Shown here piece by piece: positions 11,008-41,716 of a DNA stretch of 47,596 bases. Position 1 is the stretch's first letter, and every line of letters begins with the position of its first letter. Position numbers and translations under genes: made by a program. This DNA comes from a virus: positions 1 to 47,596 of the IMG/VR virus record IMGVR_UViG_3300050498_000023; one strand, 5' to 3'. Below the pieces are notes generated by a model. It was not told the origin of the DNA and made no database searches. It was given only the letters and a program-made list of their open reading frames with translations.

Positions 11008-11027
11008 AGCCTCGTCCTTCAGGGGAC

Positions 11028-11087: not shown

Positions 11088-11122
11088 CATGGGACTCAAA
11101 TTCCGGTTGACGCTTACCTCCT

Positions 11123-11130: not shown

Positions 11131-11186
11131 TAGGGGACCCAATTTCTACATGTATTGCATGACACATGCTATTTCACCCAAGCCCC

Positions 11187-23476: not shown

Positions 23477-23639
23477 CCTTTATCTAATTCCTCGAAGTGT
23501 TCCATGTGAGAAATGTGGAGTGAAGATAAGAACTTTAGAGTTACTAGCAAAAAAAGTCTGTCCTGTGTGTAAAGCAGAACAGAATGAGGAAAATTACGGG
23601 AAATACTTCGGCGTGATTAGAGGTGTTAAGAATGACTAA
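23469..23639 (+). CDS. 56-aa zinc-ribbon protein
   Basis: MADLYLIPRSVPCEKCG...CPVCK. The ATG at 23469 has gagg 8 nt upstream; the track start at 23406 is probably too long. Confidence 0.5.
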   Translation: MADLYLIPRSVPCEKCGVKIRTLELLAKKVCPVCKAEQNEENYGKYFGVIRGVKND

Positions 23640-24178
23640 TCACAAATACGTACCAGGAATGGGAGCAGTTGGTGCGCGCTTAATGATACTAGGCGAAGCA
23701 CCCGGACGTGAAGAAACTGCTTCTGGTAAACCCTTCGTCGGTGCTAGTGGTCGTGAACTAGACCGCATACTAATCGATGCAGGCATGAGACGTAGTGACT
23801 GCTGGATAAGTAACGTCTGCAAATACGAGGTTCCTCCAAATGAGTTTCGCAAGAAACTCCCTTTTCACATACGCGCGCGTAATGCCGGCATCGACATGGA
23901 CCAGCAGTTAGCAGAACTGCAAACAGAAATCAATGACATTAAACCTAACTGCATACTCGCTCTCGGTGGTACTGCTCTATGGGCACTGTCCGGAAAAACT
24001 AAAATTTCGATGCACAGAGGCTCTATCATGTGGGGTATGGGCCACAAGTTTGTTCCTACCTATCATCCCGCGCATCTTTTACATAGTGCTGCGGGTGGAG
24101 AAATCAAGGGTTATTGGAACCGACAAGTAATGATATTCGACTTCAAGCGTGCATACCAAGAGAGTCAATCACCTCAGC
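23632..24178 (+). other. UDG family 4/5-like domain of the polymerase
   Basis: LGEAPGREETASGKPFVGASGRELDRIL and the VPTYHPAHLL motifs. The N-terminal Cys pair of Fe-S UDGs is absent. Confidence 0.7.
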
Positions 24179-26169
24179 TTGAGTTGCCACAACGCGCACT
24201 ACAGATATGCAGGAACTCTGGAGAATTTTACGAGTTCCTAAATCGCTATTCAATGTGCGCCAAACTATCCGTGGATATCGAGGCGGGTGGTTCATGCCTG
24301 CCAATTTGTGTCGGACTGTCATTCGATAAAAGACATGGCATGACAATTCCATTGTGGAATCGTGGTGGTATTTCCACAATACCAGATAGTGACCTTGCTA
24401 CCATCTGGGTTATGCTAGCCAAGGTGCTGTGGGAGAAGAAAATTGTCGGACAAAATTTCAATTACGACAGGGACAAACTTCGTAGACTTGGTTTTGCCAT
24501 CCAACGTATCCACTCTGATACATTACTCAAGGCATTTGCTATTAACCCTGAACTCCCAAAAGGGCTTGCATTCCTTACATCTATCTATACCCGAGAACCC
24601 TACTACAAAGACGAAGGTATGTATGAGGGGGAACTTAGAGATTTATTCTTGGGGTGCGCGCGTGATAGTTGTGTCACGCTCGAAATAGAAGAAGCGATGG
24701 ATGAGGATATAGACGAGTTAGGAGTGCGGAAGTTCTACGAGAATTTCTTGATGGAATTGCCTGACTTCTATCTCGAAATCGAGAATAACGGATTCTGCGT
24801 GAATGAATCGAAGCGATATGAACTGCTCGACAAGTATATCGAGTGGGACAATCGACTGCGATACGAGATGTTTAAGCTCGCTGGTGGTAGTGATGTGAAT
24901 GTCAATTCACCACTCCAGGTCCACGAACTGCTGTTTGACGTATGGAAACTCCCGCATCGACATGGTACTGGTGAAGAAGAACTTACTGCACTTCTAAACC
25001 TGAAGCATGGCGTGAAGTTTCCTCAGCACAGGGAATGGATAGAGAAGTGTCTGGAACGCCGACGAGTAAGGAAAACTATATCTACCTACTTGATGGCAAT
25101 TCCTGATTTCGATGGTAAGATGAAAACTACCTGTTTCATGTGCCTCGAAACTGGGCGCACTTCTACCGGCCAACAAGACCCTCCCATCAGACCGCTAGTA
25201 GACATCGTAGGTAAAGGTAACAAGAAAGACATGAAGGTCATGGGTACAGCATTTCAGACCATGACTAAACACGGTGATATCGGCAGCGACATACGTTCGA
25301 TGTATGAGCCTGAACCGGGTTACATCTTCGTCCAACTAGACAGTCAGCAGGCTGAGGCGCGCGTAGTATTCAACCTCGCCACAGATGAGCAAGCGTTAAA
25401 GGACATAGACGAACATGATTACCACGCTCTTACTGCTAGTTGGTTTTTTGGCGGTATCGAATCTGATTACTCTAAGAAAGTACTCGGATATGAAAGCCCG
25501 ATTAGATTTGCTGGTAAGACTCTCCGCCACGCAGGACATCTCGACGCTGGAGCACGACGCGCAGCTACAGAACTCAATACACAGGCTAGAAAATACAAAA
25601 TCCCCATCACTATCCATGAGGGGCAGGCCGAACGTGCATTAAAGATATTCCACGCCAAACAGCCCAAGATTCGACAGGTGTTTCACCACGACGTACTCGA
25701 ATGTATCAAAGAAAATCGGCGCTTAATTGCGCCTTTACCTTGGGGGATCGATGCCGAACGAGGTGGTGTTCGTATATTCTATGAACGATGGGGTGACGAC
25801 CTATTTCGAGAGGGACTTGCCTATCTTCCACAACGAGCTGTCACTGATAATACCAAAGCGGCTGGTATTAGAATTAAGAGAGGATTCCGAGAGGCGAAAA
25901 TCATTCTTGAAGCACATGACGCACTTCTTTTTGCAGTGCGAATCGAGTATCTCGACGACTTTATCCCTCTAGCTAAGAAGGAGATGGAGCGTCCCATCAA
26001 TTTCTTGGCCTGTTCACTACCCCGAAGATTCCTCAAAATTCCTTGTGACGTGGAAGTAGGCGAGAACTATCGTGACTTGAAGAACTTCAAATTTCCTGAT
26101 AAGGTAGTAGAGCAACACAAGTTCGTGATGCCTAAAACAATAACTGAGCAATTTCTAGTACAGGAGTAG
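23632..26169 (+). CDS. Family A DNA polymerase with an N-terminal UDG-family-4-like domain and a 3'-5' exonuclease
   Basis: Exo I SVDIEAGG and Exo II GQNFNYDRDKL. Pol motif A is LDSQQAEARV, motif B region RFAGKTLRHAGH, and motif C EAHDALLF. The ATG at 23632 follows gaggtg. Confidence 0.85.
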   Translation: MTNHKYVPGMGAVGARLMILGEAPGREETASGKPFVGASGRELDRILIDAGMRRSDCWISNVCKYEVPPNEFRKKLPFHIRARNAGIDMDQQLAELQTEINDIKPNCILALGGTALWALSGKTKISMHRGSIMWGMGHKFVPTYHPAHLLHSAAGGEIKGYWNRQVMIFDFKRAYQESQSPQLELPQRALQICRNSGEFYEFLNRYSMCAKLSVDIEAGGSCLPICVGLSFDKRHGMTIPLWNRGGISTIPDSDLATIWVMLAKVLWEKKIVGQNFNYDRDKLRRLGFAIQRIHSDTLLKAFAINPELPKGLAFLTSIYTREPYYKDEGMYEGELRDLFLGCARDSCVTLEIEEAMDEDIDELGVRKFYENFLMELPDFYLEIENNGFCVNESKRYELLDKYIEWDNRLRYEMFKLAGGSDVNVNSPLQVHELLFDVWKLPHRHGTGEEELTALLNLKHGVKFPQHREWIEKCLERRRVRKTISTYLMAIPDFDGKMKTTCFMCLETGRTSTGQQDPPIRPLVDIVGKGNKKDMKVMGTAFQTMTKHGDIGSDIRSMYEPEPGYIFVQLDSQQAEARVVFNLATDEQALKDIDEHDYHALTASWFFGGIESDYSKKVLGYESPIRFAGKTLRHAGHLDAGARRAATELNTQARKYKIPITIHEGQAERALKIFHAKQPKIRQVFHHDVLECIKENRRLIAPLPWGIDAERGGVRIFYERWGDDLFREGLAYLPQRAVTDNTKAAGIRIKRGFREAKIILEAHDALLFAVRIEYLDDFIPLAKKEMERPINFLACSLPRRFLKIPCDVEVGENYRDLKNFKFPDKVVEQHKFVMPKTITEQFLVQE

Positions 26170-26173: not shown

Positions 26174-27451
26174 TTGACATGGCTGGACAAACTACTCTCC
26201 CAACACTCCGAGCTAGAGTCACCGACCAATTTCTGGTTATGGGGTGGAATGGCTGCAATATCAGCGGTGGTAAAGGACAATGTTTGGATAAATAGACAGA
26301 TTTACAACTTGTATCCGAATATCTACGTGATGTTCCATGCTGAGTCTGGACTGAAGAAAGGCCCACCTATAAGCATGGCGAAACAATTGGTGCGCGGTGT
26401 GAATAACACCCGTATCATCAGCGGGCGTAGCTCTATTCAAGGAATACTGAAGGAACTTGGTACTGCACAGACTCAACCGGGCGGTAAGGTGAATGCTAAG
26501 AGTACTGCGTTCATCTGTAGTAGTGAATTGACCAGCTCGCTAGTAGAGGACAAGGTAGCGACGGACATTCTGACCGACTTGTATGACAGACAATACAATA
26601 TAGGTGAATGGCGGTCGCTGCTAAAGATGGAACAGTTCAATCTAAAAGACCCAACTATTACTATGTTGACTGCGACTAATGACGCGCACTCAACTGACTT
26701 CTTCGGAAAGAAGGACATACATGGAGGATACTTTGCACGGACATTCATTATCTCGGAAAGCAAAAGACACAGAGCTAATTCACTTTCTGTCCCACTCACA
26801 AATCCCCCTAAGCTGGCAGAAGCAACTGAATACCTCAAAATCCTCGGCAAGTTACAGGGACCGTTCAAAGCGTTGGCGAGTAAAGAACAGACGGAGGAGT
26901 TCAAGTACCCGCACAAGGACTCAACTACAGGTGAAGTGAACTACTTCACATCAGCGGGGCTAATCTATGAGCAGTGGTACGATGATTTCATAGACCAGAT
27001 GCAGACTCAGGAATTGAGTGATGACACAGGCACATTGAATCGATTCGGTGATTCAATACTGAAGGTAGCGATGCTGCTATCTCTATCACGCAGTCCTGAG
27101 CTAGTAATAGATGACGAGTCAATGCGACTTGCTATCAACTATTCGGAACGGTTAATTGGTAACGTCCGATACATGACTCAGGGGAAGAAGGGACTGAGTG
27201 AAGCGAAAGGAATTAAGAAGCTGATAATAGATGAACTCTACTCAAGAGAATCGCATCAAATCTCCCGTCCTATGCTATTGAAGAAAATGTGGTCGCATTA
27301 CAGAGATGTAACCGAACTAGATGAAATCATGCTATCCTTCGACCAATCTGGCATGATTAAAATCGAGACTATCGGTAACAATATCATCTATGTAATGACA
27401 GACAGACAAGTTCAGGAATACAAACGGTATTACGCAGGGAAGAACAGATGA
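26174..27451 (+). CDS. DUF3987-like (YfjI-type putative helicase) protein with a degenerate P-loop
   Basis: TTG start 6 nt after AGGAG. LYPNIYVMFHAESGLKKGPPISMA aligns with the usual LYvllvGpsGsGKS region, but the Walker A Lys-Ser/Thr pair is lost. Confidence 0.45.
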   Translation: MTWLDKLLSQHSELESPTNFWLWGGMAAISAVVKDNVWINRQIYNLYPNIYVMFHAESGLKKGPPISMAKQLVRGVNNTRIISGRSSIQGILKELGTAQTQPGGKVNAKSTAFICSSELTSSLVEDKVATDILTDLYDRQYNIGEWRSLLKMEQFNLKDPTITMLTATNDAHSTDFFGKKDIHGGYFARTFIISESKRHRANSLSVPLTNPPKLAEATEYLKILGKLQGPFKALASKEQTEEFKYPHKDSTTGEVNYFTSAGLIYEQWYDDFIDQMQTQELSDDTGTLNRFGDSILKVAMLLSLSRSPELVIDDESMRLAINYSERLIGNVRYMTQGKKGLSEAKGIKKLIIDELYSRESHQISRPMLLKKMWSHYRDVTELDEIMLSFDQSGMIKIETIGNNIIYVMTDRQVQEYKRYYAGKNR

Positions 27452-27666
27452 CACCAATAGATGCTAACGGAGAGGTAATAGAAGAATTAAAAGCTGAAAT
27501 TAAGCGGCTCACTGAGGCGCTCCAGACGGCGCATGAGGCAATGCAGAGGGTATTGACGTTGCCACGCCCGCATGGAGATTACGGTAGTTCGACTTGGGAA
27601 CAGTGGGACGCGGTACAGACACAGATTGAGGAGGCCCTACGCACCGCAGGGGAGAGAAAGAAATGA
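27448..27666 (+). CDS. 72-aa hypothetical helical protein
   Basis: ATGA overlap with the upstream gene. Confidence 0.5.
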   Translation: MTPIDANGEVIEELKAEIKRLTEALQTAHEAMQRVLTLPRPHGDYGSSTWEQWDAVQTQIEEALRTAGERKK

Positions 27667-27866
27667 TAATTCCAATACCAACACACATCGAATATGAAGC
27701 TGAACCAATTGAAGGACAGGACTACAAGTGGATTCAGTGGTATTGGAACTGTCCACCTTGGAGATGTATATGCGGGCACACGATGTTCGGACGTATGCCC
27801 CACTGTATACACTGCAAACAACCAAGACCTACGGAGGAATTTAATGCCACTCAGTCCAGTATTTGA
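27663..27866 (+). CDS. 67-aa zinc-ribbon protein
   Basis: ATGA overlap; CICGH...CIHCKQ. Confidence 0.5.
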   Translation: MIIPIPTHIEYEAEPIEGQDYKWIQWYWNCPPWRCICGHTMFGRMPHCIHCKQPRPTEEFNATQSSI

Positions 27867-28038
27867 AGTGAAACTCGTACCCAAATCTTCTGAGGCATCG
27901 ATTGTCTACATCATCGTGCGCGTAGATGATTCGATAAACCTCGATAATTCAGATAAACTTTTGGATTTCATGGAAGCTCAATTCCCAATGTATCGGGTGG
28001 AACATATCATCGCTGGATACAAGAAAACTGACCCTTAG
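27844..28038 (+). CDS. 64-aa hypothetical protein, last gene of the rightward arm
   Basis: The ATG at 27844 follows ggagga. The longer track ORF (from 27694) would overlap the previous gene. Confidence 0.45.
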   Translation: MPLSPVFEVKLVPKSSEASIVYIIVRVDDSINLDNSDKLLDFMEAQFPMYRVEHIIAGYKKTDP

Positions 28039-31000
28039 AATGGAGAACCACCCTTAAATTGCAGGTCAGATCCACGAGGAATGAATACACTTTCCTCTTG
28101 ACCTCTCTTGTATGTCTGTGAACCCATCCCTACAGCAGTTGCAGGAATAACCACTGGAAGTAGGGCTGGGTTTTCTTTAGCTAGTTCTATCACATCTCCT
28201 ATAATCATGGGAACAAACATCTGCACCATACGGTCACCCACATATGTAGGTCTTTGTTTGGACGCATATGCTAGGTCATAAGCGAAACTCGCTACAGGAT
28301 TCAGTTTGTTTGAGATGAATCTTTGTGCGATTTCACCTCTAGTTGGTGCAGGGAAATCTGCTCCTGTTTCATACCGTTTTCCTGATGTCTTAGTTCTGCC
28401 CGTGAGTAAGCGATAACCCGCAACGATGTATTGCTGGAACCCACCAGCAGGGTCTATGCGCGTATCACCAATTCTAATCTTACCAAAGTCTGCACTATCT
28501 GGATCTAATGATACGGCTGCTCCTGCCATACTTGCCAATCCCGCCATACCTGCCCACGCGCTCGTAGTAGCCAGAGCAGATTTCAGATACTGCTTTCTGA
28601 CAAGCGGAGGTGCCATGATGTACGTAGCAGGATTCAACATCTGGAATCGTGATGCCATAAGACGTGGTGCAAAGAAGATATCCGCCATTACCTTCGCACT
28701 CTGCTCAAATCGTCCCAAATCACCACGTCCAGTTGCTGTATTTATGTAATCTCCAATCGCCTTAGTTAGTGGTAGATCCTTCAGTGGATGTAGTCCCATG
28801 TCCTTAGCAGATTCAAGTATAGCTTTGAACGAATCTGCGCGTAGTGAATTCAGGTATGCTGTGTATGCGCGGTTAGTCCTACGCACACCGGGAACATACT
28901 TCTCAATTGCCCCACCAATTGTATTCTCCTCTCGTCCAGTTATCTTATCATTCACATCAGTAAGTCTTATCCCTGCTTCTTCAGCTTGTGACTTCCCGAA
29001 CTTTCCCGTCATAGGGTCAAAAGGTCTAGTGAATTCAGGACGCGCTTTAATCTCAGCCATTATCTGGTTATATGCACCCTCACTTCCCAACGATTGCAAC
29101 ATAGGTTTCCATGAAGTCCACCACTGTTTGGTGTGTATCATGGGAAGTCCCTGTCTAAATGGTGCAGACAAGTCCCACGTTGCCATTAGCCCGCGTGGTG
29201 CATGATACAATTGTCTTGCTATACTTTCTTTTACTGGTTTCTTTCCTCCTCCGGGAAGAACTCCTTTTCCATTAGGCTGATTACCTCCAGGAATTCCTGG
29301 CGATCCCGCTCGGGCCAAGAGAGGGCTTTCTGCTTGTCTAGAGAGAATATCGACTTTAGACTCTCCGCGCCCCCGTGCTTGAGTGTATTCCCGTACGAGG
29401 TTCGGTATCTCTGCAACATAATTTCCTGTTGGTCCGGTGATAGCTTTGAGTACTTTAGCAACATATGCCTCCGTATCTGGAAAGCGCGTGTCTAATTGAG
29501 AAAACGCCCAAGTAAATCCACCTCCCTCATCTCGAACTAGATTATGATTAAACTCATGTTTGACTATATGCACAAATCTACGTGCAGCTTCGGCAGGTGT
29601 TAAATCTCGCACTCCACCCGTAAAACCAGAGCGGAATGAGTCCATCGGATTTACTAAGATAGCAAATTTCTGAGCGTTAGTCGGTGAACTTGGATCAGAT
29701 ATATTAATTCCGCCTTGACCTTCATCTGCAATTCTATAACCAAATTTTCCTGTTGTTCCTTTAAGTTCAGCAGGAGTAAAGTAAGTAGCTAAATCGTCCA
29801 ACAGCTCTTTCATAATCCCACCCATCTTTTTAAGGGTAGGACTATTGACAACTCTAGCTAATTCTTCAGGTGTATATTTTGAACCTGAATCTAGAACTAC
29901 ATGACGATTACTAGACTCGGGTCGTAAACTGTTGTAAACTTGTTGAATTTCTCCTAAATATTTAGCTCTAGCAGGAGCAACAATATTATCCTTAACCCAT
30001 TGCTGAAGTTCTGTACTAACACTCTGATTAATTCCCTCACGATTAGCTGGAAATGGATAGTCAGTATGACCTTCTGGTACCTTAGTATTAATGTCAAATA
30101 CAACTCTACTGGGAATATGAGGAATTCCATAACGTGATACGTTCATTCTAGTAGAATGATAAAATGTTCCATTATTTAAGTAAATAAGAGTAATTTGTGA
30201 ACGCTCCTTATCGTCTAGATTAAAGCGAACCGCAGTATCATTACTTGGAGTTACTATAGTATCAACATGAGCAGGTGCGGCTGCTGATTCAAATCTATTG
30301 AAATTAGCACGACGATCATATGCTGAAAGTCCTTGTTCTCCCTTATTAATAAATTTATTAGCCTCCGATCTAGGATCTGTTGTATCTTCTGTCAACCAAT
30401 TCTCATAAGATTCAATGTTCTTCACTCCAGTACTATTTTCACTAACTACTTGCAGCAATTGTTTTGCATTATCAAAGTATTTATCCCGTCCAAAGAACAC
30501 TTCCACACGCAATCCAGTAGGCTTGTCATAGTGTACATTATAAGGATCATCCAATACTTCACGACTCAGGGGTACACCTACTTCCTGATTCACAAACTGT
30601 TCTGGAGTACCCTCAAATGTATACCTAACTTTATCTCCACCTTCCATTACAATGGATTCAACTCGCATGTGCTCACCACCTAAAAATGGAGCAGCTTTTG
30701 CGAATCCAAATCCACCAGCAGCACCCTGTATGTGCCTCTTACCACTCTTACCTACGTCAGAAAATTCATTATACAGTTGACTTTCATTCATTCCTCGACC
30801 AAAGTCTTGGAATACAATAGATTTTTGAGCTACTTTCGTTACAGGATTAAGAGAAGCATTCGAGAATATAACTCTAACTGGATTCTGAATACCAGCAATC
30901 TTCATCTCATCCATAATATTCTGCATTAATTCTTGAATCAATACAGAAGGTCTATCCCTAGTATATAGACTCTGACCAAGTTGTCTAATAACTTGGGGAT

Positions 31001-32714
31001 CTGCACCACCCATTGCAAGATTAGGTCTACCAGTCTGAGGATTAACAATTACAGGCCCACCACCCCCATATCCACCTTGCCTGACCTGCATCCTGCTAAC
31101 TGGTTCTGAACCAAATGCAGGACCAGGTGTTGGATAAGTTCTCGTCAATCCATGAGCTTCGTACTCAGATACTCCTCTTACTTTCTGAGGCCATGATCCT
31201 TCTGCACCTGTTGCACTACCCGGAGGTACTCTAGTTACAGGAGCCGTAACGTAATCCTCAAATTCCTCCTGTGTAGGCTCACGTTTTAGCATTCGCCTCA
31301 GATTATCTCGTTGTTCTTCAAGAGGATCAGCCTGCATTCTACTAACTAGAGATTCCTCATCACCACCTATCTGTTCCATACGCGCACGGGCGCGTAAATC
31401 ATCTATACCAGTAGGTGGTAAGGGAGATTCCTGTAAACCCGCTTCAATATTGAATTGATCCGCTGATTGTTGACTTACAGCTCTTTGTCCTTCAGGAGTG
31501 AGTTTATCCCATCCTGTTTGAAATGGAGTTTGTTCCTGAATAGGAGGCCGTCCTGCATCTATGTTTTCATTAATCTGCTGTATACGCTGTTGCCTTGCTC
31601 TTTCCTGTAATTCTGCCTCTGCTTCTGCCCTTGCTCTAGGGTCAGCCATGTTACTAACTAGAGGTTCATCTTCACCTACAGCTACTCGCTTAAATGTAAC
31701 AGTATTAGGATTTCTATCAACTAATGTATATCCACCTTCCTCCATATTAGCGATAAAGGTGTTATTTACCCTAGCAGTCGGAACTTCAATAGTTTCTCCG
31801 GGTATTTCTCGGCGTGAGACTGGCTCCACTGAAGGCTGAATTGGAGTTGGTTCGACCTGAGTTGGAGTAGTTTCAGCATTCGTGTATAGAGGCGCAAGAT
31901 CACCACGTACCATCTGGACGTAGCCTTCAGGACTACGCAGATTTGGTACTGACACGTATCCCTGATTACGATAGTACTCTACAATCGAAGCATCAGGAGT
32001 CTTAATCGTAACTACGCGCGGTAAACCCTCTCCTGCTACTGGTTGGGAAGCAGCAACAGTAGAAATACTTAGAGATGGACGTGCAGCAGGGGGAGGCGGA
32101 GGAGCAGATACGTCAATATCAACATCAGTCTTAGGTAATGGCACATCAGGAATTTGATTCAGTTTTCTGCCGTGATAGGCACCAATCCCACCACCTGTTA
32201 CCAAACCCATCAACCCGCCTGCACCAACATTCTGTGCATATTCCTCTAGTGGCGCATCGAAACTACCAGTCTGCGCCCAATGTTGAAATGGAGTACCGGC
32301 ACCGCTTACGACTGCACCTTCAGCAGCTCCGGACAGTGCTGTTTTACCCGCATATTTAGCTATTGCGCCGAGTCCTTTACCCGCGAATTTTGCAGGTCCA
32401 AGAATAGGAGGAACAGCACCTAATGCTGTCTCTACTCCAAATTCAGCGGGATTAAATTCCCTTCCACCATACCAATTACCCAGCACATTACCTAATGCAG
32501 AGCCACCTGCACCACCCGCCATGCCACCGGGTATGCCACCAAGAATACCACCTGCTACACCACCAACTACGGCAGGTACAGTGCGTAGACCCTGTTCTAT
32601 CCACCAGTCTAGTCCTGATGGTTCAGGTTTACTTGTTTCAAATTCCGAAAAATCATACTTCGGAGTAATTGTATCGAAATCTGAAAAATCGTACTTCTTT
32701 TGGGGGCCGGCCAT
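28035..32714 (-). CDS. 1559-aa multidomain internal-virion-type protein: glycine-zipper N-terminus, Hsp90/HtpG-like GHKL ATPase domain, HExxH motif, hydrophobic C-terminal region
   Basis: Last gene of the structural operon, with TAATG coupling. Motifs are detailed in the domain features. N-terminus: [31 protein letters not shown]. Confidence 0.85.
   Translation of the reverse strand: [1559 protein letters not shown]
29544..29558 (-). other. HExxH motif (HEFNH, aa 1053-1057): possible zincin metallopeptidase site
   Basis: Context [26 protein letters not shown], a hydrophobic helix followed by HExxH. No third ligand was assigned. Confidence 0.35.
30420..30992 (-). other. Hsp90/HtpG-type GHKL (Bergerat-fold) ATPase N-domain, aa ~575-765
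   Basis: [22 protein letters not shown] (N-box E595/N599/D602). [29 protein letters not shown] (G1 box plus the AKSGT-like segment). [12 protein letters not shown] (G2 box). All three run parallel to the remembered E. coli HtpG segments [20 protein letters not shown] / [27 protein letters not shown] / IGQFGVGFYSAF. Confidence 0.7.
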
Positions 32715-34333
32715 TATTTTACATACCCCTTAGCAATGGCAAGTTGAACATTTTTATCCGTAACTACCTGTCCCTGAGCCTTTAGAAATTCCTCCGCGCG
32801 CTGCCTTAATCCAATTTTCTTAAGATCATCCAATTCTCTCTGAATAGCTGGCCTAATCTGATTAGGTGTCTTAGGATTGGCTAGAAATCCTTCTAATTCA
32901 GTTATTCTAGCTTTTTCTCTTGCTCCTTTATTTGCACCAGCAGCGGCAGCCCTAGCTCTTATGTCTGCTCTAGTTTTTTCTTCTTCTGATGTTCCGGGAA
33001 TTTTAGTAGGTCCAATTCCCTTTGATGAGGTAGTCGGAGGTGCAGGTGGAGGTGCAGTTTGTTCTTGTCTAGGAAGTGAAGGAGGAACATAATTTGGATC
33101 AATAGACTGTCTTACTCTATCCCATGCATCCACTTGAGCCTGAGTTACACCCGCACCCAATCCCCATAAACCTGTAGGACCAGCTTTAGGTCTATCTGTC
33201 ATTTGATATGTGCCATCATCATTCTTAATTATGTGCTCTCTGGCTTCAGGATCTATTGCATAGGCATTTCCTAAAATCTTCTGCATATCTCCTGATGCAG
33301 CCGTAGGTCTAGGTGGTGTTCCAGGTCTAGTTGGAGTACCTTGCGGCAGTCCCTGTACGGGAGAGAAGCTTCCATCCTCATTACGCTGGTAAGTTGTACC
33401 ATTTATTACAACTAAGTCCCTACCAGATGCTACTGCACCTGCCTGTGCAGTTTGTACTGCTGCTCTACCCTGTGCTTCACTTCGTTTTACACCCCACTCA
33501 CCGATAATGTCAAGTTCATCTGCTCTATCTATCCCACCAGATGGACCTAAATCTACTCGTTCTTGAGTACTAGGATTTATTGCTACAAATCTCGAACCAG
33601 CCTTCTCTACTGTCCATCCACTATTCTTGGCAGCATACGCACGCGCGCGTACTGAATTCACTTCCGCCGCCGCTCTATTCTTTTCTTCAGTTATTCGATT
33701 CTTCTCGTCAGCTATTCGGCTCAACTCAGCCTGTTTATTCGCCGCGGTTGTAGCATTAACAACATTTCCTGCTAATGTCCGTTCATTGATGTTTGCCGTA
33801 TTCTCGAATTGTGCAGCTTGGCTAAATGGCCCCGCTTTTGCCGTAAAATCAGCCATATCACGGTAATGAGGTGCATTTAACACTTTTTCCTGCACTTCAT
33901 AACCACCTGGAATTCCTCTACTCTTGTTACCAAGGAATGCACCGGCAGCCACGATCCTTCTACCCAATGACGGTTCTTCACGTTCAGGATATTGGTCTAA
34001 AAGTCCTCGAAATCTGTCTCTATCTACAGTAGATGGTGTATAGAATTGGTTAATAAGATCCGCCATTTCTTTTGGATCATATGCTGCATTCTGCCCCATC
34101 GGTTTAATCTGCGGAGGTGGACCCATCTGCACGTTACGTCCATAACTCGTAGGATCAAATGATGGCTTACCCGGATTTATTGCCTGAAATTCATCTGGTA
34201 TTGGCATAGGTTGAAATGGGTCATCATACGTCGGTGCATAACTACCCATGCCAAAGTCACCACCAGTAATATCTGGGGTAGACTGGAATATCTGAGGTTG
34301 GCGTAGTTTATCAATCCCGTATCTAGACGCCAT
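32714..34333 (-). CDS. 539-aa internal-virion-type protein (Pro/Gly/Ala/Gln-rich)
   Basis: The ATG at 34333 forms a TAATG overlap with the upstream stop (the track start at 34357 is rejected). It contains a coiled Ala/Asn/Arg region and a Pro-rich linker. Confidence 0.6.
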   Translation of the reverse strand: MASRYGIDKLRQPQIFQSTPDITGGDFGMGSYAPTYDDPFQPMPIPDEFQAINPGKPSFDPTSYGRNVQMGPPPQIKPMGQNAAYDPKEMADLINQFYTPSTVDRDRFRGLLDQYPEREEPSLGRRIVAAGAFLGNKSRGIPGGYEVQEKVLNAPHYRDMADFTAKAGPFSQAAQFENTANINERTLAGNVVNATTAANKQAELSRIADEKNRITEEKNRAAAEVNSVRARAYAAKNSGWTVEKAGSRFVAINPSTQERVDLGPSGGIDRADELDIIGEWGVKRSEAQGRAAVQTAQAGAVASGRDLVVINGTTYQRNEDGSFSPVQGLPQGTPTRPGTPPRPTAASGDMQKILGNAYAIDPEAREHIIKNDDGTYQMTDRPKAGPTGLWGLGAGVTQAQVDAWDRVRQSIDPNYVPPSLPRQEQTAPPPAPPTTSSKGIGPTKIPGTSEEEKTRADIRARAAAAGANKGAREKARITELEGFLANPKTPNQIRPAIQRELDDLKKIGLRQRAEEFLKAQGQVVTDKNVQLAIAKGYVK

Positions 34334-35433
34334 TAGCCGCCTCCGCCTTCTTCCCAAACATTAGATGGCCCTCGTGATGGCTGTTGTGGGCGTCTACGAT
34401 TACTCAGGAATGCATTGGCTACACCAGTACCAGTGTTAACCCAATCCATTACGTCATTACCACGCTGCATACCACGTTCCCATGCACCCGGTAATTGTTG
34501 TCCTTCCGCGCGCCGTCCCATCATGTTCAGGCCATATGTACCACCTTGGCCTACACCTTGTAACAACTGATTACCGAATGTCTCGGCCATACCCGGTGAA
34601 GTGCCGTACAGCTGAGTCATTCCACTTAATGCTCTCAATCTATCGGTGTTATTAGCCGCTGCTGATGCTGCTCCACGATTTGCACCACTTTCAGCAGCCG
34701 CATTTGCAGCCGCTTGGGCACGCGCATAAGCATCAGCATTGTACTGTTGACCCTGAAAGTCTAGTCCTGTATTGAATTTGCTGAGATCAACGTCTGCACT
34801 GAGCCGTTGACCCTCAATATTACCCATTCCAGTCAGACCAAACTGCCTACCTCTATTCCTTGCTTCTGCCAGTCCAGCTTCTACATTCTGTGTAGCATCA
34901 GCCGCAGCCTGTCCTTGTTCTCTTGCCATCTTTACCTGCGCGGCTATTGCATTAGGTGCGTAGCCACCTTGTAATGACCTTTGTCTACCTACTTCACGTT
35001 CAGCGTTAGCGTATGCCGCGCGTATAGGACTGACTCCCCTCGCACGCATATTCGCTATGTCATTAGCAGAGTATCCACCTGTGCTGGCGAATTCCTGCAT
35101 TCCTCCGTATGAAGCAAATGGATCACTGTATCCTGCTCTACCCGGAGATACAGTAAATGCGTCGAAATTACCAACAGCACCACCGCCTCCGCCACCGCCT
35201 CCACCACCTTCGCCAGCTTGTCCACCACCTGATGCAATGGACCGATACTGGTTCATAATATCGGTGTAATCACCGTAATTCGCTTCAGAACCACGACCAT
35301 AGTTCTGCGCGAATGCATTAACCATTGGTCCTTGCTGCTTTTCATATCGATTTTGCTGATAATTAGCAGCATTCTGTAACTGGCCCCGAGGATCATTTCC
35401 AGATTCGCCTGGTTTCTTGTTATTTGAACCCAT
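34333..35433 (-). CDS. 366-aa Gly/Ala/Gln/Asn-rich internal-virion-type protein
   Basis: Contains GEGGGGGGGGGGAVG and repetitive Ala/Gln/Asn helices. It lies upstream of the two larger proteins. Confidence 0.6.
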   Translation of the reverse strand: MGSNNKKPGESGNDPRGQLQNAANYQQNRYEKQQGPMVNAFAQNYGRGSEANYGDYTDIMNQYRSIASGGGQAGEGGGGGGGGGGAVGNFDAFTVSPGRAGYSDPFASYGGMQEFASTGGYSANDIANMRARGVSPIRAAYANAEREVGRQRSLQGGYAPNAIAAQVKMAREQGQAAADATQNVEAGLAEARNRGRQFGLTGMGNIEGQRLSADVDLSKFNTGLDFQGQQYNADAYARAQAAANAAAESGANRGAASAAANNTDRLRALSGMTQLYGTSPGMAETFGNQLLQGVGQGGTYGLNMMGRRAEGQQLPGAWERGMQRGNDVMDWVNTGTGVANAFLSNRRRPQQPSRGPSNVWEEGGGG

Positions 35434-35439
35434 AACTCC

Positions 35440-35823
35440 TCACAAGTCGAAAATGAGTGACTGTCCTTGGGGCAATCTGAACCCGTTTTTCATTAATCTT
35501 TTCGTGTATTTTGGATTCTGGCTCCAAACATACATCTGTTCGTAATCCGACTTCTTACACACGAAGGTATTCGCGTCTAACATCTGGTATAATGCCCGCG
35601 CTCGAACTCTAGGATCTCTACTCATGTTCGTGACTAATACGCACTCAGCTATGTCACGTATTCCGCCCGCTGTAATGATTCCTTCCTCGTCTTCCACAAC
35701 GAATGCACAGACGTATTTCATGAAATCTGGCATAGTGAATTCACCCTTGAAGTGCAACGAGTGAATTCTCTCCACTTCACTCACATCAGCGGGAGTAAGT
35801 GCGCGTATTTTATGGGAGTTCAT
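35440..35823 (-). CDS. GNAT-like acetyltransferase-fold protein (tentative)
   Basis: MNSHKIRALTPADVSEVERIH...FVVEDEEGIITAGG...LYQMLDANTFVCKKSDYEQMYVWSQNPKYTKRLMKNGFR follows the GNAT strand-helix layout. The Q/RxxGxG/A motif is not canonical. I prefer the ATG at 35823. Confidence 0.4.
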   Translation of the reverse strand: MNSHKIRALTPADVSEVERIHSLHFKGEFTMPDFMKYVCAFVVEDEEGIITAGGIRDIAECVLVTNMSRDPRVRARALYQMLDANTFVCKKSDYEQMYVWSQNPKYTKRLMKNGFRLPQGQSLIFDL

Positions 35824-36433
35824 AGAATCCACTAATTGTAATGACTTGACCAGACGCCAATGCAGCCGGTGCCGCACCACTATAGAGATTCGCACTATTA
35901 TGTATCAGCAATACAACACCGGCTCCGAATGCTTGCGCGGTCATACCCTGATAAGTAGGTGAACCATTCCAAATTGCAGGCATTGCTATCGTTCCAGTAA
36001 ATGCTGTAGGTAAGCTGAATGTATAGAATCCACTTCCTGCCGCAGTCGTAGTTCCAGGATTGAATGCAATCGTGCAGTATACAGTTTTACCGATAGTCAT
36101 GAATCGGCCTGTTAATGTTCCATTATTGAGCGCAAAGCCTCCACCTGATGCAGTTATTACTGGTGTAAAAGGCTGCCACACCCCCTGAGATTGCCAGTTA
36201 GTATTGAAATTAGTTGCATCAATCTTTGTTAATACTTGTCCAGCAGTACCACCAACTGGAACACCCGGACCTGTCGGACCTTGTATACCTTGTGGTCCCT
36301 GTGAACCTGTAGCTCCTGTATCTCCTTTATCTCCTTTAGGGCCAGTAGGCCCAGCAGGACCAACTGGTCCCTCACTGAGTGGATTCCAGATAGGAACCCA
36401 ATTAGTAGTTGCAGGATCAGGAATATCAACCAT
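35810..36433 (-). CDS. Collagen-like repeat tail fibre protein (short)
   Basis: GPVGPAGPTGPKGDKGDTGATGSQGPQGIQGPTGPG G-X-Y repeats followed by a beta-rich C-terminal domain. Confidence 0.7.
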   Translation of the reverse strand: MVDIPDPATTNWVPIWNPLSEGPVGPAGPTGPKGDKGDTGATGSQGPQGIQGPTGPGVPVGGTAGQVLTKIDATNFNTNWQSQGVWQPFTPVITASGGGFALNNGTLTGRFMTIGKTVYCTIAFNPGTTTAAGSGFYTFSLPTAFTGTIAMPAIWNGSPTYQGMTAQAFGAGVVLLIHNSANLYSGAAPAALASGQVITISGFYELP

Positions 36434-36785
36434 TTCTCTTACTCGATGTTTGTAACCACTCTATTGTTTCTAACGCATTACGCGCAGGAGTACCAGTATG
36501 CCACGGAACCTGAGCTAAATAGTTGAATAACATGTCAAATTCAACCATGCTAATCTGTAATTGCCTACTTCCTTCCTTTTTCAGTTGTCTCTCTGATTCT
36601 CCATTGATCATTTTCTTGCCACATGACTTCAATTCACTGATACTCTCTAATTTCTCGAATAGTCCTACTTCAGTGCGAAGTATCTGCATTCCTTTAGTCT
36701 GTTGTAACGACCCTCCAAGTACGAATCCAACGAAACAGAACTGAAAATGACGTTCACCCATCTCATCTTCAAAGTTTAGAATCAT
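36426..36785 (-). CDS. 119-aa hypothetical protein between the two fibre genes (assembly-factor candidate)
   Basis: Coupled ORF; the suggestion rests on position only. Confidence 0.45.
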   Translation of the reverse strand: MILNFEDEMGERHFQFCFVGFVLGGSLQQTKGMQILRTEVGLFEKLESISELKSCGKKMINGESERQLKKEGSRQLQISMVEFDMLFNYLAQVPWHTGTPARNALETIEWLQTSSKRNG

Positions 36786-36787
36786 AA

Positions 36788-38422
36788 CTAATTCTTCTGA
36801 CAGAAATACACGTCAATAAATGGTGGCAGATTAGATGCCGCCGCTGACACGCCCGTAACAGGAGGCGCTTCACTACTTATTGGACCTGAACCTGCACCCG
36901 ATCCGCTGAAATTATGTGAGTGATCTCCTCTTGAATCAGTGTCCGAGTCAATTGTTCCACTAAAGTTGTGAGTGTGACTCGCCGCATTAGTCTGAAAACT
37001 TCCACCAGCATCAGCCGTGTTCGCTGCGCCTGTAGATGCTGTTGTGCCAGCAAATGGTGCGCTCAAATGATGATTATGATTCCCAGCGTTGTTAGTAGAT
37101 CCACTGACATTCACGCTGACATTGACGTTACCACCATGATTATGCGAACCTGCTGCAAAAGTGCCCGGACCATGTGAGTGTGTTGCTGCTCCACCAGTTC
37201 CACCCGGAGCACCACTACGTATAAAGAGTCCATCCCAATTCACCCTTGTCCATCCAACTGGACAAGGTGACATACTAATAACAATCAATCCACTCGGAAA
37301 TGATTCTAATGACTGCCACGTTGAATCACCACGTAAGAATGTGGATGCATTCGGCGTTCCGCTACCTAATCTACTTGGATTAACTAGTCCAGTCGTGATA
37401 TTCGATCCATTTAGATTCGTTACATCTGCGCCATTGCCTAGCAGGAATGGTGCAACAAATTGTCCAACTCTTGTGTATGCAAATTGGGCCTGATTAGTTC
37501 CAAAGCCATCAGTCCATGCCTCAACATAAAGATTACCATCCTGATAATTAATCATTCTCCAGATACGTTTATTGACTGGAGCAGCAGTATCATGAAATTC
37601 TAATGCACCATAACTTCCAGAAATTCTAGTAAAAGCAGCAAGAGTCTGTGGTACAAACATGTTATCGATGTTCTTCAGTGCTACGTTAGAAGTCAATCGA
37701 TTATCTGGTAGTATTCCAGTCGTATCAGTTAGTGGTATTGTCGCGACTACACTTGGTTCACCCGCAGTTGATCTTACATAGCCAGTTCCGAGCGCACCTA
37801 ATGGACGCGCATTCGGTAGACTCGCGTGTGGTGAAACTAACCAATATGTAGCATCTGCTACAGCTCCACCTGCTGGTCCGGGTGGTCCTTGTGGTCCTAT
37901 TGGTCCTACTATACCTTGTGGACCTGTAGGGCCAGTAGGTCCGGGTGGTCCCGGTGGACCTGTAACTGTTGCAATACCTACACCGGGCCATGTTACAGGA
38001 GGATCATTAGTCGGTTTTACACACAGATAAGCAATATTATCTGGACCAATGATTACATCTCCGTCACTGTAGAGAGGACCGGCTGCGAAATTCCCTAAAT
38101 ACTCTAAATCTAAATCTATCGTTCTCTTGTTGGCAACTGTATCATCGAATTTCAGTCCAAATCTTGCAAGGAACTGACGTGAATTCGGTAATATCGATGC
38201 TTCATTATCTTCAGTTAGGTATGAGGCCGCATCACTCGCGCCGCCACCTCCCGGTCCACCACCTATTATGGTTGTACTCGAAACAGCAGCCTGAGCACCT
38301 GATAATCGTTCAATAATTTCCTGAACGACTTGGTACAGAGAACCATCAACGTCCCTAGATTGTGCTAGAGTACTTTTTAAGTCCGCAAATTGCGGCGGCT
38401 TAGTTGAACGCTTCTGCACCAT
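36788..38422 (-). CDS. Collagen-like repeat tail fibre with tail-collar-like region and an HxH-repeat tip
   Basis: [31 protein letters not shown]. The [18 protein letters not shown] segment is collar-like. Five HxH motifs are present (HSH, HNH, HNHH, HTH, HSH). Confidence 0.75.
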
Positions 38423-38424
38423 GA

Positions 38425-38736
38425 CTATGAACCGGGATATGACTTGTATATTTCCTTCGTAAAGATTACAATTCGGTTAATTCTGAAGTAGTCGCCCTGA
38501 TTGACAGTTTTCAGTTCAAATGATGCGCGCTGCTCAACAAAATTCACTATGCGAGTAGGAGAATACCTGTTGCTAAGAGCCATAGGTAGAGGATCTAACG
38601 CCTTAGAGCGCATATCATCGAGTGAAAACACAGCAATTCTCAACTCTCCCGCACCAGTCAATCGAATGCGTATCGTGGAGAAATGAGTAGTAGCCTCACC
38701 CGAACTTTGCTCTGATACCGCAGCACCTACTGGCAT
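38425..38736 (-). CDS. 103-aa hypothetical virion-module protein
   Basis: Tightly packed ORF in the structural operon. Confidence 0.5.
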   Translation of the reverse strand: MPVGAAVSEQSSGEATTHFSTIRIRLTGAGELRIAVFSLDDMRSKALDPLPMALSNRYSPTRIVNFVEQRASFELKTVNQGDYFRINRIVIFTKEIYKSYPGS

Positions 38737-40113
38737 TTATTCACCTATGTATGCTGTTCTAATCGTAGGATTAGGAATTCGCAGACTTACCTGATTGTTA
38801 TAAATATCGACGCGCGCTTCCTTTGGTTTATTGACCACGAACAGACCACTCAAATCATCTTTGGGGGCAAGTGCGCGACCAGTTGGAAATCCAGTGTATA
38901 TTACATACAGCATTTGTTGAGATATACGTGATTCCTTAGTTGGCCCCTGCGGTGTTACAGGATTCCACAGAAATTCCGCACCAAATCCCCATCTATACAT
39001 GTTAGTTGCCGTGACAGACCCAGGAATAGTTAATCCTGCATTTCCCGTCTGCATGAAACTATTACTGGCTAATGATGTATTGCTTACTTCTGCGTTATTA
39101 TGATCTCTGTATAGTCCCCACGCCTCAGTCGCAGGTGTTCCCACATCTGCTCCAGTGTTAAAGAAGCCATAATACCTAATACTGCTTACCGTTGAATCAT
39201 TGTGAGGGACTGAACCCTTATCTACGAATTTAATAAAGTGAACTGCTTTGTAGAATGTAGGAACAGCAGGAGTAAGCCCAGGATCTATATATGCAACTGC
39301 ACTACCCGGACCAGTACCATCAGTATTAACCGGATACAGCCATGTAGGACATGGTTGCGCGGTCGCCAAATATGCAGGGTCATTCCAGCCACCTAATTGT
39401 CCGGCTGTAATCAAATTAGGTCGGTTAATATGCTGATCCCACATATGTCCCTGTTCCCAATTAAGTGACGTATAGGGATTAGCAATGTTACCTATATCTC
39501 CTGCTGTCCTTAAAGGACTGGCCCAAATTGGTCCCGGACCAGCTACTGGACCAGTGTTAGTATCCCATCTATTTGCCTGAGCCTCAAACTGTTCCTTAGT
39601 CAGTGCATCCTGATTCCAATACTTGAAGCAGCAAACATCCGCTATGTTACTGATGGCAACTACCAAGTTATAAAATGGGTCATTAATGCTATATCCCGTT
39701 CCTGCGGCAGTTACTTGCGTTAGTGTGACCGGACGTTCCCAGGGATTCGTGCTTAATGGATCTTCTACTCCAGCATAAACTGTAACATTAGCTCCACTCT
39801 TAGCAAAACAGAATACTTGCCATCTGTTGTGCAGGACAAAGCCTATGTCTGTAGAGGGAGCAGCAAGAGTTTTATCGCGTGCAGTCAGATGCCATACAAT
39901 TCCGTCATTCTGTATGATTATGTTCGACCCCCCGATACAGTTAAATCCGACTAATGTGTTCGGGACCGTGAAATACTGCTTGACCCAAATACAGAAACTC
40001 CACTTTTCCGACGCAGCAGGAGTTATACCTGGGAAAAAAATAGGCGGATTTTCAGACCCAGTAGTCTGAAATCTTATCAATTGCACATAACCCGCGCTAG
40101 ACCTAACCGACAT
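38737..40113 (-). CDS. 458-aa structural protein with an N-terminal LamG/ConA-like lectin-fold pattern (tail spike or receptor-binding candidate)
   Basis: WSFCIWVKQYFTVPNTLVGFNCIGGSNIIIQNDGIVWHL resembles the LamG_3 signature (f.vs.Wvk...). Confidence 0.45.
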   Translation of the reverse strand: MSVRSSAGYVQLIRFQTTGSENPPIFFPGITPAASEKWSFCIWVKQYFTVPNTLVGFNCIGGSNIIIQNDGIVWHLTARDKTLAAPSTDIGFVLHNRWQVFCFAKSGANVTVYAGVEDPLSTNPWERPVTLTQVTAAGTGYSINDPFYNLVVAISNIADVCCFKYWNQDALTKEQFEAQANRWDTNTGPVAGPGPIWASPLRTAGDIGNIANPYTSLNWEQGHMWDQHINRPNLITAGQLGGWNDPAYLATAQPCPTWLYPVNTDGTGPGSAVAYIDPGLTPAVPTFYKAVHFIKFVDKGSVPHNDSTVSSIRYYGFFNTGADVGTPATEAWGLYRDHNNAEVSNTSLASNSFMQTGNAGLTIPGSVTATNMYRWGFGAEFLWNPVTPQGPTKESRISQQMLYVIYTGFPTGRALAPKDDLSGLFVVNKPKEARVDIYNNQVSLRIPNPTIRTAYIGE

Positions 40114-41716
40114 CTAAAATCTCCGTAGGATTTCCAGAAATTAAATCAGGACCAATAGCTCCGAGTACTAATCTGTCAGTTTCGGCTAGTGTGATGCTGT
40201 TGATGTTCGCGTCGTATATCCACTTAGCCCATCTAATTTCCTTCGCATTCATTCCGTTCTTGTAGTCCGCGTGTAACAGCACCTTCCTGAACGGCGGAGG
40301 CAATGTAATCCAGAGTTTCTTATTGATTGAATCATTTACAATCTGTATTAGATGGAATTCATTTCGGTCCAATCCTCTCCAAAAATCTTCAATCTTCCAG
40401 GACATTTCAGGCTGTGCATATACGCCGTTGAATAGCATCAGACCTGACCAGTCCACAATGATTAGAAAGTCGATGTTCACGCCGCCCGTGTCTAACACCG
40501 TTGCTATTCCATGAACAGGTGAGCCTATACCTTGGTCCAGTAGTTCTTCCTGCCATGTTACTGGTTCATCATAGTTATCTGAGTATGCGTATGTTCTAGT
40601 TTTCTTGAATATATACATGACATCCCTAAATTCTTGGACGCATGTTAGTGGATGACCATCTAGTGGAACAACTATGATTCCTTCTACCTTGTTTATTGCT
40701 TCTGGTTCACCTGCGACTGACAATCTAGCAATTGATCTGTTGTCTGTGATTCCTGCTGGTAGTCCTGTCAATGTTTCAGTCGTACCAAATTCTCCGACTA
40801 TCACGAGCCGAGAATGATACGTGTTCAGATATACACCAGCGGGAATCTCAGCAAAGTTATCAGCTAGGTGCGATGCGTCACTTAGCAGGTCAGCATCAAA
40901 GAAGTTGATAGTTTTCGTAGTATCGATGTTATTATCAATATTTCCTCCTGGAATGAAGAAGTATTGATATCCCTTCTGATCACCATTGTATTCCGGTATC
41001 ATTTTCGTAGATACCAGATGTCGCTTCTTGACCCAAGCGTTAGGTGATACAGGAATATTCGATACGACTATATCATGCGTACCAGTGAATGTTACTTCAG
41101 CTTTAACATCTGGTCCTATTGATGTGAAATAACCAGTGTCCGTCTCATATACCACTCCGATGATGTGAAATCCAGCATCAGATTTAATTCCCGTCGTGAT
41201 TGCTCCCATTGCAGCAGTCATCGGCGGGCCTACAGGTGGAGTCCCGGCCGCTTTACGCGCCGCAGTTCCATCACCTTTGTAGACGTAAATGAATTCGTTT
41301 TGAATTCCTAGCTGATACTTTTCACCATTCTCATTCGTGTATGTCTTGAATGGACTGATATACGCGCGCCCGTTAATCGCGACGAACCCAAAATCCTCCA
41401 TCGCTGCGATGGTTAGAATCGGCCCAACTATCGTCCTAGGTGAACCTTTAATGTGATAGATGTTCCCTCCTTCAGTCAATACCAGGAGAGTTCCACCCTG
41501 CTGTGTAATGTAGTTATAGATTCTTAGAGGCTTCAGAATGACACTTGGATTGACATAGGAGGTTATTCCCTCCCTAGTCTCAAGTCCAGACTGAAAATAC
41601 TGAACATTATCAGCCTGAATGAAGTGGTCAGATGGAGCAGATTCGGCGTCACCTCTACTCCACCAGCCAGTAAAGTCTTCAATTACGAGTGGTTCGTGGT
41701 CCCTAGTAGTCGGCAT
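40103..41716 (-). CDS. 537-aa tail structural protein (nozzle / tubular-B-like by position)
   Basis: Large beta-rich ORF after a 240-aa adaptor-like gene, in a T7-like order. No motif evidence. Confidence 0.4.
   Translation of the reverse strand: MPTTRDHEPLVIEDFTGWWSRGDAESAPSDHFIQADNVQYFQSGLETREGITSYVNPSVILKPLRIYNYITQQGGTLLVLTEGGNIYHIKGSPRTIVGPILTIAAMEDFGFVAINGRAYISPFKTYTNENGEKYQLGIQNEFIYVYKGDGTAARKAAGTPPVGPPMTAAMGAITTGIKSDAGFHIIGVVYETDTGYFTSIGPDVKAEVTFTGTHDIVVSNIPVSPNAWVKKRHLVSTKMIPEYNGDQKGYQYFFIPGGNIDNNIDTTKTINFFDADLLSDASHLADNFAEIPAGVYLNTYHSRLVIVGEFGTTETLTGLPAGITDNRSIARLSVAGEPEAINKVEGIIVVPLDGHPLTCVQEFRDVMYIFKKTRTYAYSDNYDEPVTWQEELLDQGIGSPVHGIATVLDTGGVNIDFLIIVDWSGLMLFNGVYAQPEMSWKIEDFWRGLDRNEFHLIQIVNDSINKKLWITLPPPFRKVLLHADYKNGMNAKEIRWAKWIYDANINSITLAETDRLVLGAIGPDLISGNPTEILDVG

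Follow-up and report, generated by a model that had tools for sequence, protein, structure and literature searches.

What does a GNAT-like gene do inside the virion module of a phage? The question is raised by a block of four genes that closes the late operon of IMGVR_UViG_3300050498_000023, an IMG/VR record of 47,596 nt (the window, meaning the whole stretch of DNA that was analysed) from a virus known from sequence alone. The block encodes proteins of 127, 366, 539 and 1559 amino acids (aa) and was originally predicted to be a virion-delivered effector module, in which an acetyltransferase, an ATPase and a metallopeptidase decorate the equivalent of the T7 ejectosome. The sequence bears out the four genes and their lengths, the TAATG overlaps at 34333 and 32714, a run of ten glycines, the ATP motifs and the HExxH motif, each at the position given for it, and the layout of the open reading frames (ORFs) confirms that the block lies downstream of the fibre genes at the end of the operon (Table 1). 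It is proposed that the block is probably the internal virion protein (IVP) operon of a podovirus-like phage, comprising a non-packaged GNAT-fold counterpart of T7 gp13 and three ejected conduit proteins, the last of which is a giant that carries a GHKL ATPase and a zincin as its cargo.

The 127-aa protein and its kinship to T7 gp13

The 127-aa protein is, judged from its structural model, a GNAT-fold protein, as had been predicted. The AlphaFold2 model was built from 34 homologues and has a predicted local distance difference test score (pLDDT) of 79.4 and a predicted template modelling score (pTM) of 0.73, with the last 9 residues not confidently modelled. When it is compared with the PDB by Foldseek, the best 50 matches are all GNAT acetyltransferases (probability 1.0, template modelling (TM) score 0.56-0.75). 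The protein shares with the GNAT superfamily the α/β fold and the spacing of the β5-α4 segment 'N..x..x.k.GF', but it is short (127 aa) and has only one, poorly modelled terminal strand. The same model matches the 'Internal virion protein A' of Vibrio phage N4 in BFVD (probability 0.98, query TM score, TMq, 0.59) and also the 'Internal (Core) protein' of phage ZG49, both of which are members of the T7 gp13 family. The GNAT identity came solely from fold and profile-profile comparison; phmmer and family-profile searches of PDB sequences found no GNAT, and PHROG and PADLOC searches of the protein and its family returned nothing GNAT-like.

The link to T7 gp13 is also seen by hhalign. Aligned with a profile of ten gp13-family sequences assembled from T7-like phages, the 127-aa family reaches a probability of 89.6% (E 1.9e-6) over 111 collinear columns, which span nearly all of both proteins, and the controls, one reversed and 20 column-shuffled alignments, all remain at or below 1.4%. 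The comparison is informative only with the ten-member alignment, the match to the single T7 gp13 sequence being too weak to use. Two landmarks common to both families can be recognised by eye, a GG..(C/E)..VT strand and a YVW..N....R.L...G stretch before the final strand. In the window as well as in seven related contigs, the small gene lies immediately upstream of the genes in the IVP-B, IVP-C and IVP-D positions. Overall, these results argue with moderate strength that the 127-aa protein is a distant homologue of T7 gp13 (IVP-A).

The IVP-A of T7 is known to match acetyltransferases (Hardies et al., PMC4819975 section 9). Homologues of IVP-A and IVP-B occupy the syntenic position in the phiRIO-1-like phages, in epsilon15 and in P22 (PMC4819975), and in all of these as well as in T7-like phages an acetyltransferase-family IVP-A gene immediately precedes the ejection-protein genes (PMC4819975; PMC6775973). 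The layout of P22 is gene 14 (151 aa), followed by 7, 20 and 16. In cobaviruses a GNAT adjoining the IVP genes has been equated with gp13 (PMC6775973). A GNAT at this operon position is therefore expected, because the podovirus IVP-A found there is already acetyltransferase-like (PMC4819975; PMC6775973), and the earlier view that an acetyltransferase gene inside a virion module is unusual has to be given up; it is ordinary for podoviruses and explained by existing knowledge. T7 gp13 is needed for morphogenesis and is not kept in the mature virion (PMC4819975, citing Kemp 2005).

The cofactor site of the 127-aa protein is atypical. The loop between strand 4 and helix 3, placed from the secondary structure of the model, reads R69-D-P-R-V-R74. 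Canonical GNATs have a Q/RxxGxG/A loop after β4 for the pyrophosphate of acetyl-CoA, but none of the 34 aligned members has a Gly in this loop, at either of the two motif-A Gly positions. The β5-α4 segment runs N103-x10-G114-F115 and includes an invariant Leu110; its spacing matches the classical RimI-type N..A..LY...GF, and Leu110 stands at the usual position of the motif-B Tyr. As read from the alignment, a Leu at the place of this catalytic Tyr argues against canonical catalysis. T7 gp13 has both departures too, with neither the canonical loop nor the motif-B Tyr. Several polar residues (R7, D13, E44, D45, E60, R74, S101 and Q102) are conserved in the family and therefore indicate a functional surface or site. 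Acetyltransferase activity is nevertheless doubtful because the acetyl-CoA loop is absent and Pfam GNAT models do not match, and canonical acetyl transfer by the protein would appear unlikely. Of the three potential enzymatic activities that had been predicted for the block, the ATPase and the metallopeptidase retain intact motifs that are conserved in homologues, whereas the acetyltransferase is in doubt.

Conservation of the block and the two middle proteins

Relatives of the block are found among metagenomic contigs. When the region is compared with 50,697 phage records, megablast finds no near match and tblastn/megablast yield one distant match, to the C-terminal domain of the giant only; the best terminase match has 28% identity. 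The 127-aa protein on the other hand has 86 homologue clusters, mostly of 123-125 aa, several of which lie on 45-49 kb contigs. Each of the seven related metagenomic phage contigs that were fetched has the four genes in identical order, encoding proteins of 123-125, 359-472, 465-518 and 769-2481 aa, and in each the block comes after the tail and fibre genes and before convergent replication genes. The upstream fibre genes differ among the seven. Because the order is kept in seven related contigs, the four-gene arrangement reflects more than chance.

The 366-aa protein contains GGGGGGGGGG, which includes the G10 run, and consists of 18% Gly, 15% Ala, 8% Gln and 8% Asn. It shares 46-65% identity with its counterparts in the seven relatives. 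The 539-aa protein (12% Ala, 9% Gly and 9% Pro) is less conserved, at 27-35% identity, and has a weak PHROG 'tail fiber' match (E 0.0025).

The hallmark of an IVP operon is that the late genes close with IVP-A and three genes of growing size (PMC4819975; PMC8954989), and the three consecutive late genes that follow the 127-aa gene grow in this manner (366, 539 and 1559 aa; cf. PMC8954989 Table 1). Like genes 13-14-15-16 of T7 and 14-7-20-16 of P22, the block consists of a small acetyltransferase-family gene and three genes of growing size, and it is translationally coupled within a late operon. It differs in that the fibre genes lie upstream of the block, whereas those of T7 lie downstream; in that no sequence similarity can be detected between the three large proteins and their T7 or P22 counterparts; in that the B-position protein has 366 aa and no hydrophobic helices, compared with about 200 aa in T7 and P22; and in that the D-position protein carries ATPase and protease domains and no muralytic domain that could be found. 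The 366-aa protein is likened to IVP-B, and the 539-aa protein to IVP-C, by syntenic position, by size and by a low-complexity composition. The original prediction of a T7 ejectosome equivalent is thus borne out in terms of position, as gene order and size fit IVP-A/B/C/D. Its description of the 366-aa and 539-aa products as ejection-type agrees with their position, size and composition but not with sequence or profile comparison, where no similarity to ejection proteins appears.

The giant protein and its central cargo

The 1559-aa giant is a modular protein, with P0087-P0099 as homologues. Its N-terminal domain (aa 1-200), which includes a hydrophobic segment at aa 42-67, is kept in P0088-P0092, P0094, L001 and L016. 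The C-terminal domain (aa 1165-1559) is very widespread, with 9,234 cluster representatives at E<=1e-3 and 2,999 at E<=1e-30, and among the matches listed it lies almost always at the C-terminal end, in proteins of 463-1844 aa; it has no match in Pfam, PHROG or the PDB. Six relatives that also have the GNAT-like gene possess giants with this C-terminal domain, and in two of the six the N-terminal domain is kept as well, but all six are without the ATPase and the zincin, and in one relative an ART-PolyVal domain takes the place of this cargo. The giant is therefore made up of a conserved N-terminus and C-terminal domain that flank a swappable central cargo.

Swapping of domains has been described for packaged polyvalent proteins (PMC5512222). 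Like these, the giant is very large, presumably packaged and equipped with more than one domain of catalytic type, here two (Iyer et al. 2017, PMC5512222). ART-PolyVal occurs in one relative only, and no PolyVal Pfam model matches the window giant. It differs from the polyvalent proteins in that the zincin does not match the MPTase-PolyVal Pfam model and the conserved flanking N- and C-terminal domains are not described there (PMC5512222).

Among the 50,697 phage records, the only annotated one with the C-terminal domain is MW202497.1 (L020), in which positions 6451-11199 encode a 1582-aa hypothetical protein. Here the domain lies in the middle of the protein rather than at its end. The record is labelled Siphoviridae, and the gene is located downstream of a gene for a P22 gp10-like 'phage stabilization protein'. 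In L016 (12922-16918) gene calling divides the giant gene into an ORF of 366 aa with the conserved N-terminal domain and one of 958 aa with the C-terminal domain. The gene may be split naturally, or the division may stem from a frameshift or from an error of assembly.

The ATPase has a core at approximately aa 575-780 with an ExxxNxxD motif at 595, a DxGxG motif at 637 and a lid, GGFGFAKAAP, at residues 663-672; motifs and lid are conserved in 19 aligned homologues. Of 33 long homologues, 15 match HATPase_c in Pfam (best E 5e-9) and 11 match HATPase_c_3; over both models the best E in homologues is 1e-9, and P0100 passes both cut-offs. The window giant alone gives a sub-threshold match to HATPase_c_3 (E 0.0045, 17.5 bits against a Pfam cut-off of 25) as well as a PHROG match to RIIA (E 1.2e-6). 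The family profile finds the N-domains of Hsp90, Grp94 and TRAP1 as its best PDB matches (E 4.2e-7), and the label 'Hsp90-like' is correct. All Bergerat-fold ATP motifs are shared with the N-domain of Hsp90/HtpG and with T4 RIIA, the PHROG match being to the N-terminal region of the latter. Unlike Hsp90, the giant has no detected middle or C-terminal domains of that protein, and its ATPase is part of a virion-operon protein and fused directly to a zincin.

The zincin directly follows the ATPase. Its HExxH motif, HEFNH at 1053, is invariant in 30/30 aligned homologues, and the residue six positions past the second His of the motif is Glu or His in homologues and Glu in the window phage; on this sequence evidence the zinc site is well supported. 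The AlphaFold2 model of the domain has a pLDDT of 83.5. When compared with the PDB, the zincin profile matches Wss1p weakly (E 0.009) over 29 residues on the HExxH helix, and the Pfam WLM model is matched by 1/33 homologues (E 7.8e-4). The likeness to Wss1/WLM consists of the HExxH helix, a third ligand six residues on and the small size of the domain, whereas the matches are all weak and the third ligand is Glu. The placement in the Wss1/WLM family is accordingly weak but consistent across methods. Right after the zincin, most homologues have a conserved 'SRGR' followed by 'D.L' (29295-29400, aa ~1105-1140), which by its sequence could be a processing site. The possibility that the zincin supplies a missing muralytic activity was rejected, as its affinities are only to minimal zincins of the Wss1/selecase type and not to peptidoglycan peptidases.

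ATPase and zincin behave as a fixed pair. Of the 150 proteins that match the C-terminal domain best, 25 include the ATPase, and in all 25 the zincin lies directly downstream in the same order; a further four carriers have the zincin without the ATPase. HExxH is intact in 29/29 of these proteins, and ExxxNxxD together with DxGxG in 24/25. No literature was found on ejection proteins or internal virion proteins with a GHKL or Hsp90-like domain, which, given the incomplete coverage, is absence of evidence only, and a term search of PMC5512222 gave no GHKL, HATPase or Hsp90 domain. No description of the GHKL-zincin pair was found.

Proposed function and alternative explanations

It is proposed that the 127-aa protein most likely acts in the infected, virion-producing cell as a morphogenesis factor that loads or assembles the internal proteins. 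By analogy with gp13 it would probably be neither packaged nor an injected effector, and it has probably lost or strongly altered the canonical acetyl-CoA chemistry. Position and size suggest that the head most likely contains the 366-, 539- and 1559-aa products, which would be expelled at infection and used to build a trans-envelope conduit for the DNA. The giant would serve as a carrier, and what it holds at its centre in this phage is a single fixed module made up of an Hsp90-like GHKL ATPase and, directly after it, a Wss1-like zincin. Since the GHKL domain needs ATP, we infer that the module works in a cytoplasm. Once ejected into a newly infected cell, it could act on host proteins as a protease regulated by ATP; in the producing cell it could instead be at work while the core is assembled, as a chaperone and maturation protease built into the giant. 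The patchy, cargo-like distribution of the module slightly favours the host-directed role.

Several results weigh against the IVP-operon reading. No close cultured relative was found by megablast or by terminase comparison. The homology to gp13 is moderate (~90% hhalign probability from a ten-sequence profile). PF11090 matches none of the 34 members of the 127-aa family at E<=10, although T7 gp13 itself matches this model ('probable scaffold protein') at E 1.1e-47, and the single P22 gp14 sequence has no hhalign match to either the 127-aa or the gp13 family. A Pfam GNAT match, proposed earlier as a check on the product of 35440..35823, is missing as well, both for the window protein at E<=1 and for the 34 members at E<=10. 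The 366-aa protein has no match in Pfam, PHROG, PADLOC or the PDB, including a search of the PDB with its family profile, and the 539-aa protein has no confident match in the family libraries or, by family profile, in the PDB. Compared by hhalign, the 366-aa family gives no signal with T7 gp14 or P22 gp7, nor does the 539-aa family with T7 gp15/gp16 or P22 gp20/gp16, and overall the probabilities for the 366-aa, 539-aa and giant families against T7 gp14/15/16 and P22 gp7/20/16 are <=0.4%. The solved ejection proteins in the PDB likewise show no similarity to the three profiles. The 366-aa protein has no hydrophobic segment, unlike the helices typical of T7 gp14-like proteins, and no muralytic domain was found. 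Finally, the fold assignment of the zincin is weak, with Wss1 as the first Foldseek match (probability 0.82, E 0.098, target TM score, TMt, 0.45) and selecase as the next.

The alternative that survives best concerns the module rather than the operon. The GHKL-zincin pair might not be directed at the host but be a built-in chaperone and maturation protease that acts on the giant or its partners before they are packaged, by folding, dimerising or trimming them, and this is tentatively kept as a possible reading. GHKL ATPases such as Hsp90, MutL and GyrB are commonly ATP-driven dimerisation clamps, which would suit such a role, as would the presence of ATP in the producing cell and not in the capsid or periplasm. 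The candidate processing site after the zincin also fits. The relatives manage without the module, which is therefore not part of the conduit itself, and this too is compatible with an assisting role. However, it is hard to explain in this way why, of close relatives whose flanking domains are the same, only some should have the module, and a swappable cargo that includes ART-PolyVal fits host-directed functions better (PMC5512222).

It is less likely that the 127-aa protein is an active but non-packaged acyl- or acetyltransferase, which modifies an internal protein or the portal in the producing cell for core assembly. The fold and the conserved site speak for a transferase of this kind, as does its invariable position directly before the presumed substrates. 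T7 gp13 is moreover needed for morphogenesis (PMC4819975), and its GenBank annotation states that it is required for gp6.7 incorporation. Against this, the protein has neither the canonical cofactor loop nor the catalytic Tyr, and no report of acylated internal virion proteins was found.

A bolder version of the host-directed role would make the giant a delivery vehicle that injects, ahead of the genome, an ATP-driven clamp of the Hsp90/MutL type fused to a Wss1-like, possibly DNA-activated protease. The pair would then clear or inactivate the host proteins with which the entering DNA is confronted, for example restriction enzymes, nucleoid proteins or sensors of defence systems. In this specific form the idea is speculative and rather improbable.

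It is more doubtful still that the three large proteins serve elsewhere in the particle, for instance at the tail tip, in a needle or as decoration. Such a role would agree with the lack of detectable homology to any characterised ejection protein and with the weak 'tail fiber' match of the 539-aa protein. It is countered by the IVP-A homologue and the three growing genes at the end of the late operon, which are the IVP hallmark (PMC4819975; PMC8954989), and by the separately encoded collagen-like fibres upstream. IVP-C and IVP-D homologues are furthermore notoriously undetectable by sequence (PMC4819975), and PMC8954989 also warns that such homologies are usually invisible.

Least probable of all is the original prediction that the 127-aa protein is an active acetyltransferase which is packaged and delivered and modifies host targets, fibres or the receptor: the GNAT fold, the conserved polar residues, the translational coupling inside a late structural operon and the proposal that solo GNATs among the late genes of some mycobacteriophages are deployed from the capsid (PMC5512222) speak for it, but the homologous T7 gp13 is not kept in virions (PMC4819975), the loop is absent in 34/34 members with Leu in place of the motif-B Tyr, and neither Pfam (E<=10) nor a family-profile search of the PDB finds a GNAT.

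The results extend the IVP-A (T7 gp13) family to a deeply divergent lineage of uncultivated phages and add to the evidence that IVP-A are GNAT-fold proteins without the canonical cofactor loop, which bears on the role of gp13 in T7 morphogenesis. The new part is the carrier, in which a very abundant C-terminal domain is combined in a sizeable subset with the Hsp90-like ATPase and Wss1-like zincin as cargo. If the host receives the pair, it would amount to an injected enzyme of a new type, which might help against host defence; if its place is in assembly, it would provide the building of the ejectosome with a self-contained chaperone-protease. Should the delivery-vehicle idea hold, the pair would open a new class of counter-defence enzymes that are delivered by the virion, and the scaffold carrying it has a C-terminal domain common to thousands of uncultivated phages.

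Gene layout and neighbouring genes

The late operon runs 5' to 3' on the minus strand in the order adaptor, two large tail proteins, 544-aa fibre, 119-aa ORF, 207-aa fibre and the four-gene block. Its end is bounded by convergent replication genes, which encode a fusion of a uracil-DNA glycosylase (UDG) with PolA and a DUF3987-type primase/helicase. Both TAATG stop/start overlaps can be read directly, as CATTA on the plus strand at 34331-34335 and 32712-32716. The mechanical ORF of the 127-aa gene reaches a GTG at 35895 and that of the 539-aa gene a TTG at 34357, the 127 and 539 aa being counted from ATG. The ATG of the 127-aa gene overlaps the 3' end of the neighbouring collagen-like fibre gene by 14 nt, and this choice of start is supported because the homologues begin within four residues of it. 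A promoter and terminator scan of 27000-39000 is uninformative on the operon boundaries, as the sites are no more numerous than in shuffled sequence.

Table 1. Positions of the genes of the block, the domains of the giant protein and selected upstream genes in the window
Feature	Position	Strand	Basis
127-aa gene, IVP-A-like, GNAT-fold, distant homologue of T7 gp13 (PF11090 family)	35440..35823	-	ORF, fold, profiles
366-aa gene, IVP-B position, Gly/Ala/Gln/Asn-rich, G10 run	34333..35433	-	position, composition
539-aa gene, IVP-C position, Ala/Gly/Pro-rich	32714..34333	-	position, composition
1559-aa modular giant gene, IVP-D position, last of the late operon	28035..32714	-	position, size
Giant aa 1-200, conserved N-terminal Gly-rich hydrophobic domain	32115..32714	-	homologue conservation
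Giant aa 560-860, Hsp90-like GHKL (Bergerat-fold) ATPase and following middle region	30135..31037	-	motifs, profiles
Giant aa 861-1140, zincin-like metallopeptidase domain, nearest WLM/Wss1	29295..30134	-	motif, profile, fold
Giant aa 1053-1057, HEFNH zinc-binding motif	29544..29558	-	motif
Giant aa 1165-1559, widespread uncharacterised C-terminal domain	28038..29222	-	homologue clusters
Adaptor, weak SU10_adaptor match	41716-42438	-	late operon, upstream of the block
544-aa collagen-like fibre	36788-38422	-	upstream of the block
207-aa collagen-like fibre	35810-36433	-	directly upstream of the 127-aa gene

At 28035-28038 the stop codons of the giant gene and of a plus-strand ORF (27694-28038) overlap by 4 nt (CCTTAGAA), and there is no terminator-like hairpin between the two converging transcription units near this point. 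The plus-strand ORF encodes 114 aa and occupies the position at which three relatives have an unrelated cold-shock-domain gene, which comes right after the giant gene and is encoded on the other strand (L001 16848-17072, L016 16915-17142 and L017 15552-15800). The DNA polymerase of the window (23623-26169) is a single 848-aa fusion of a UDG-like domain (PF03167) with PolA, whereas in L017 (17720-20240) the two parts are separate adjacent genes encoding 213 and 631 aa. The C-terminus of the 544-aa fibre has a run of HxH motifs (SHNHGG, NHNHH, SHTHNF and DHSHNF), which resembles the metal-binding repeats of some phage fibre tips.

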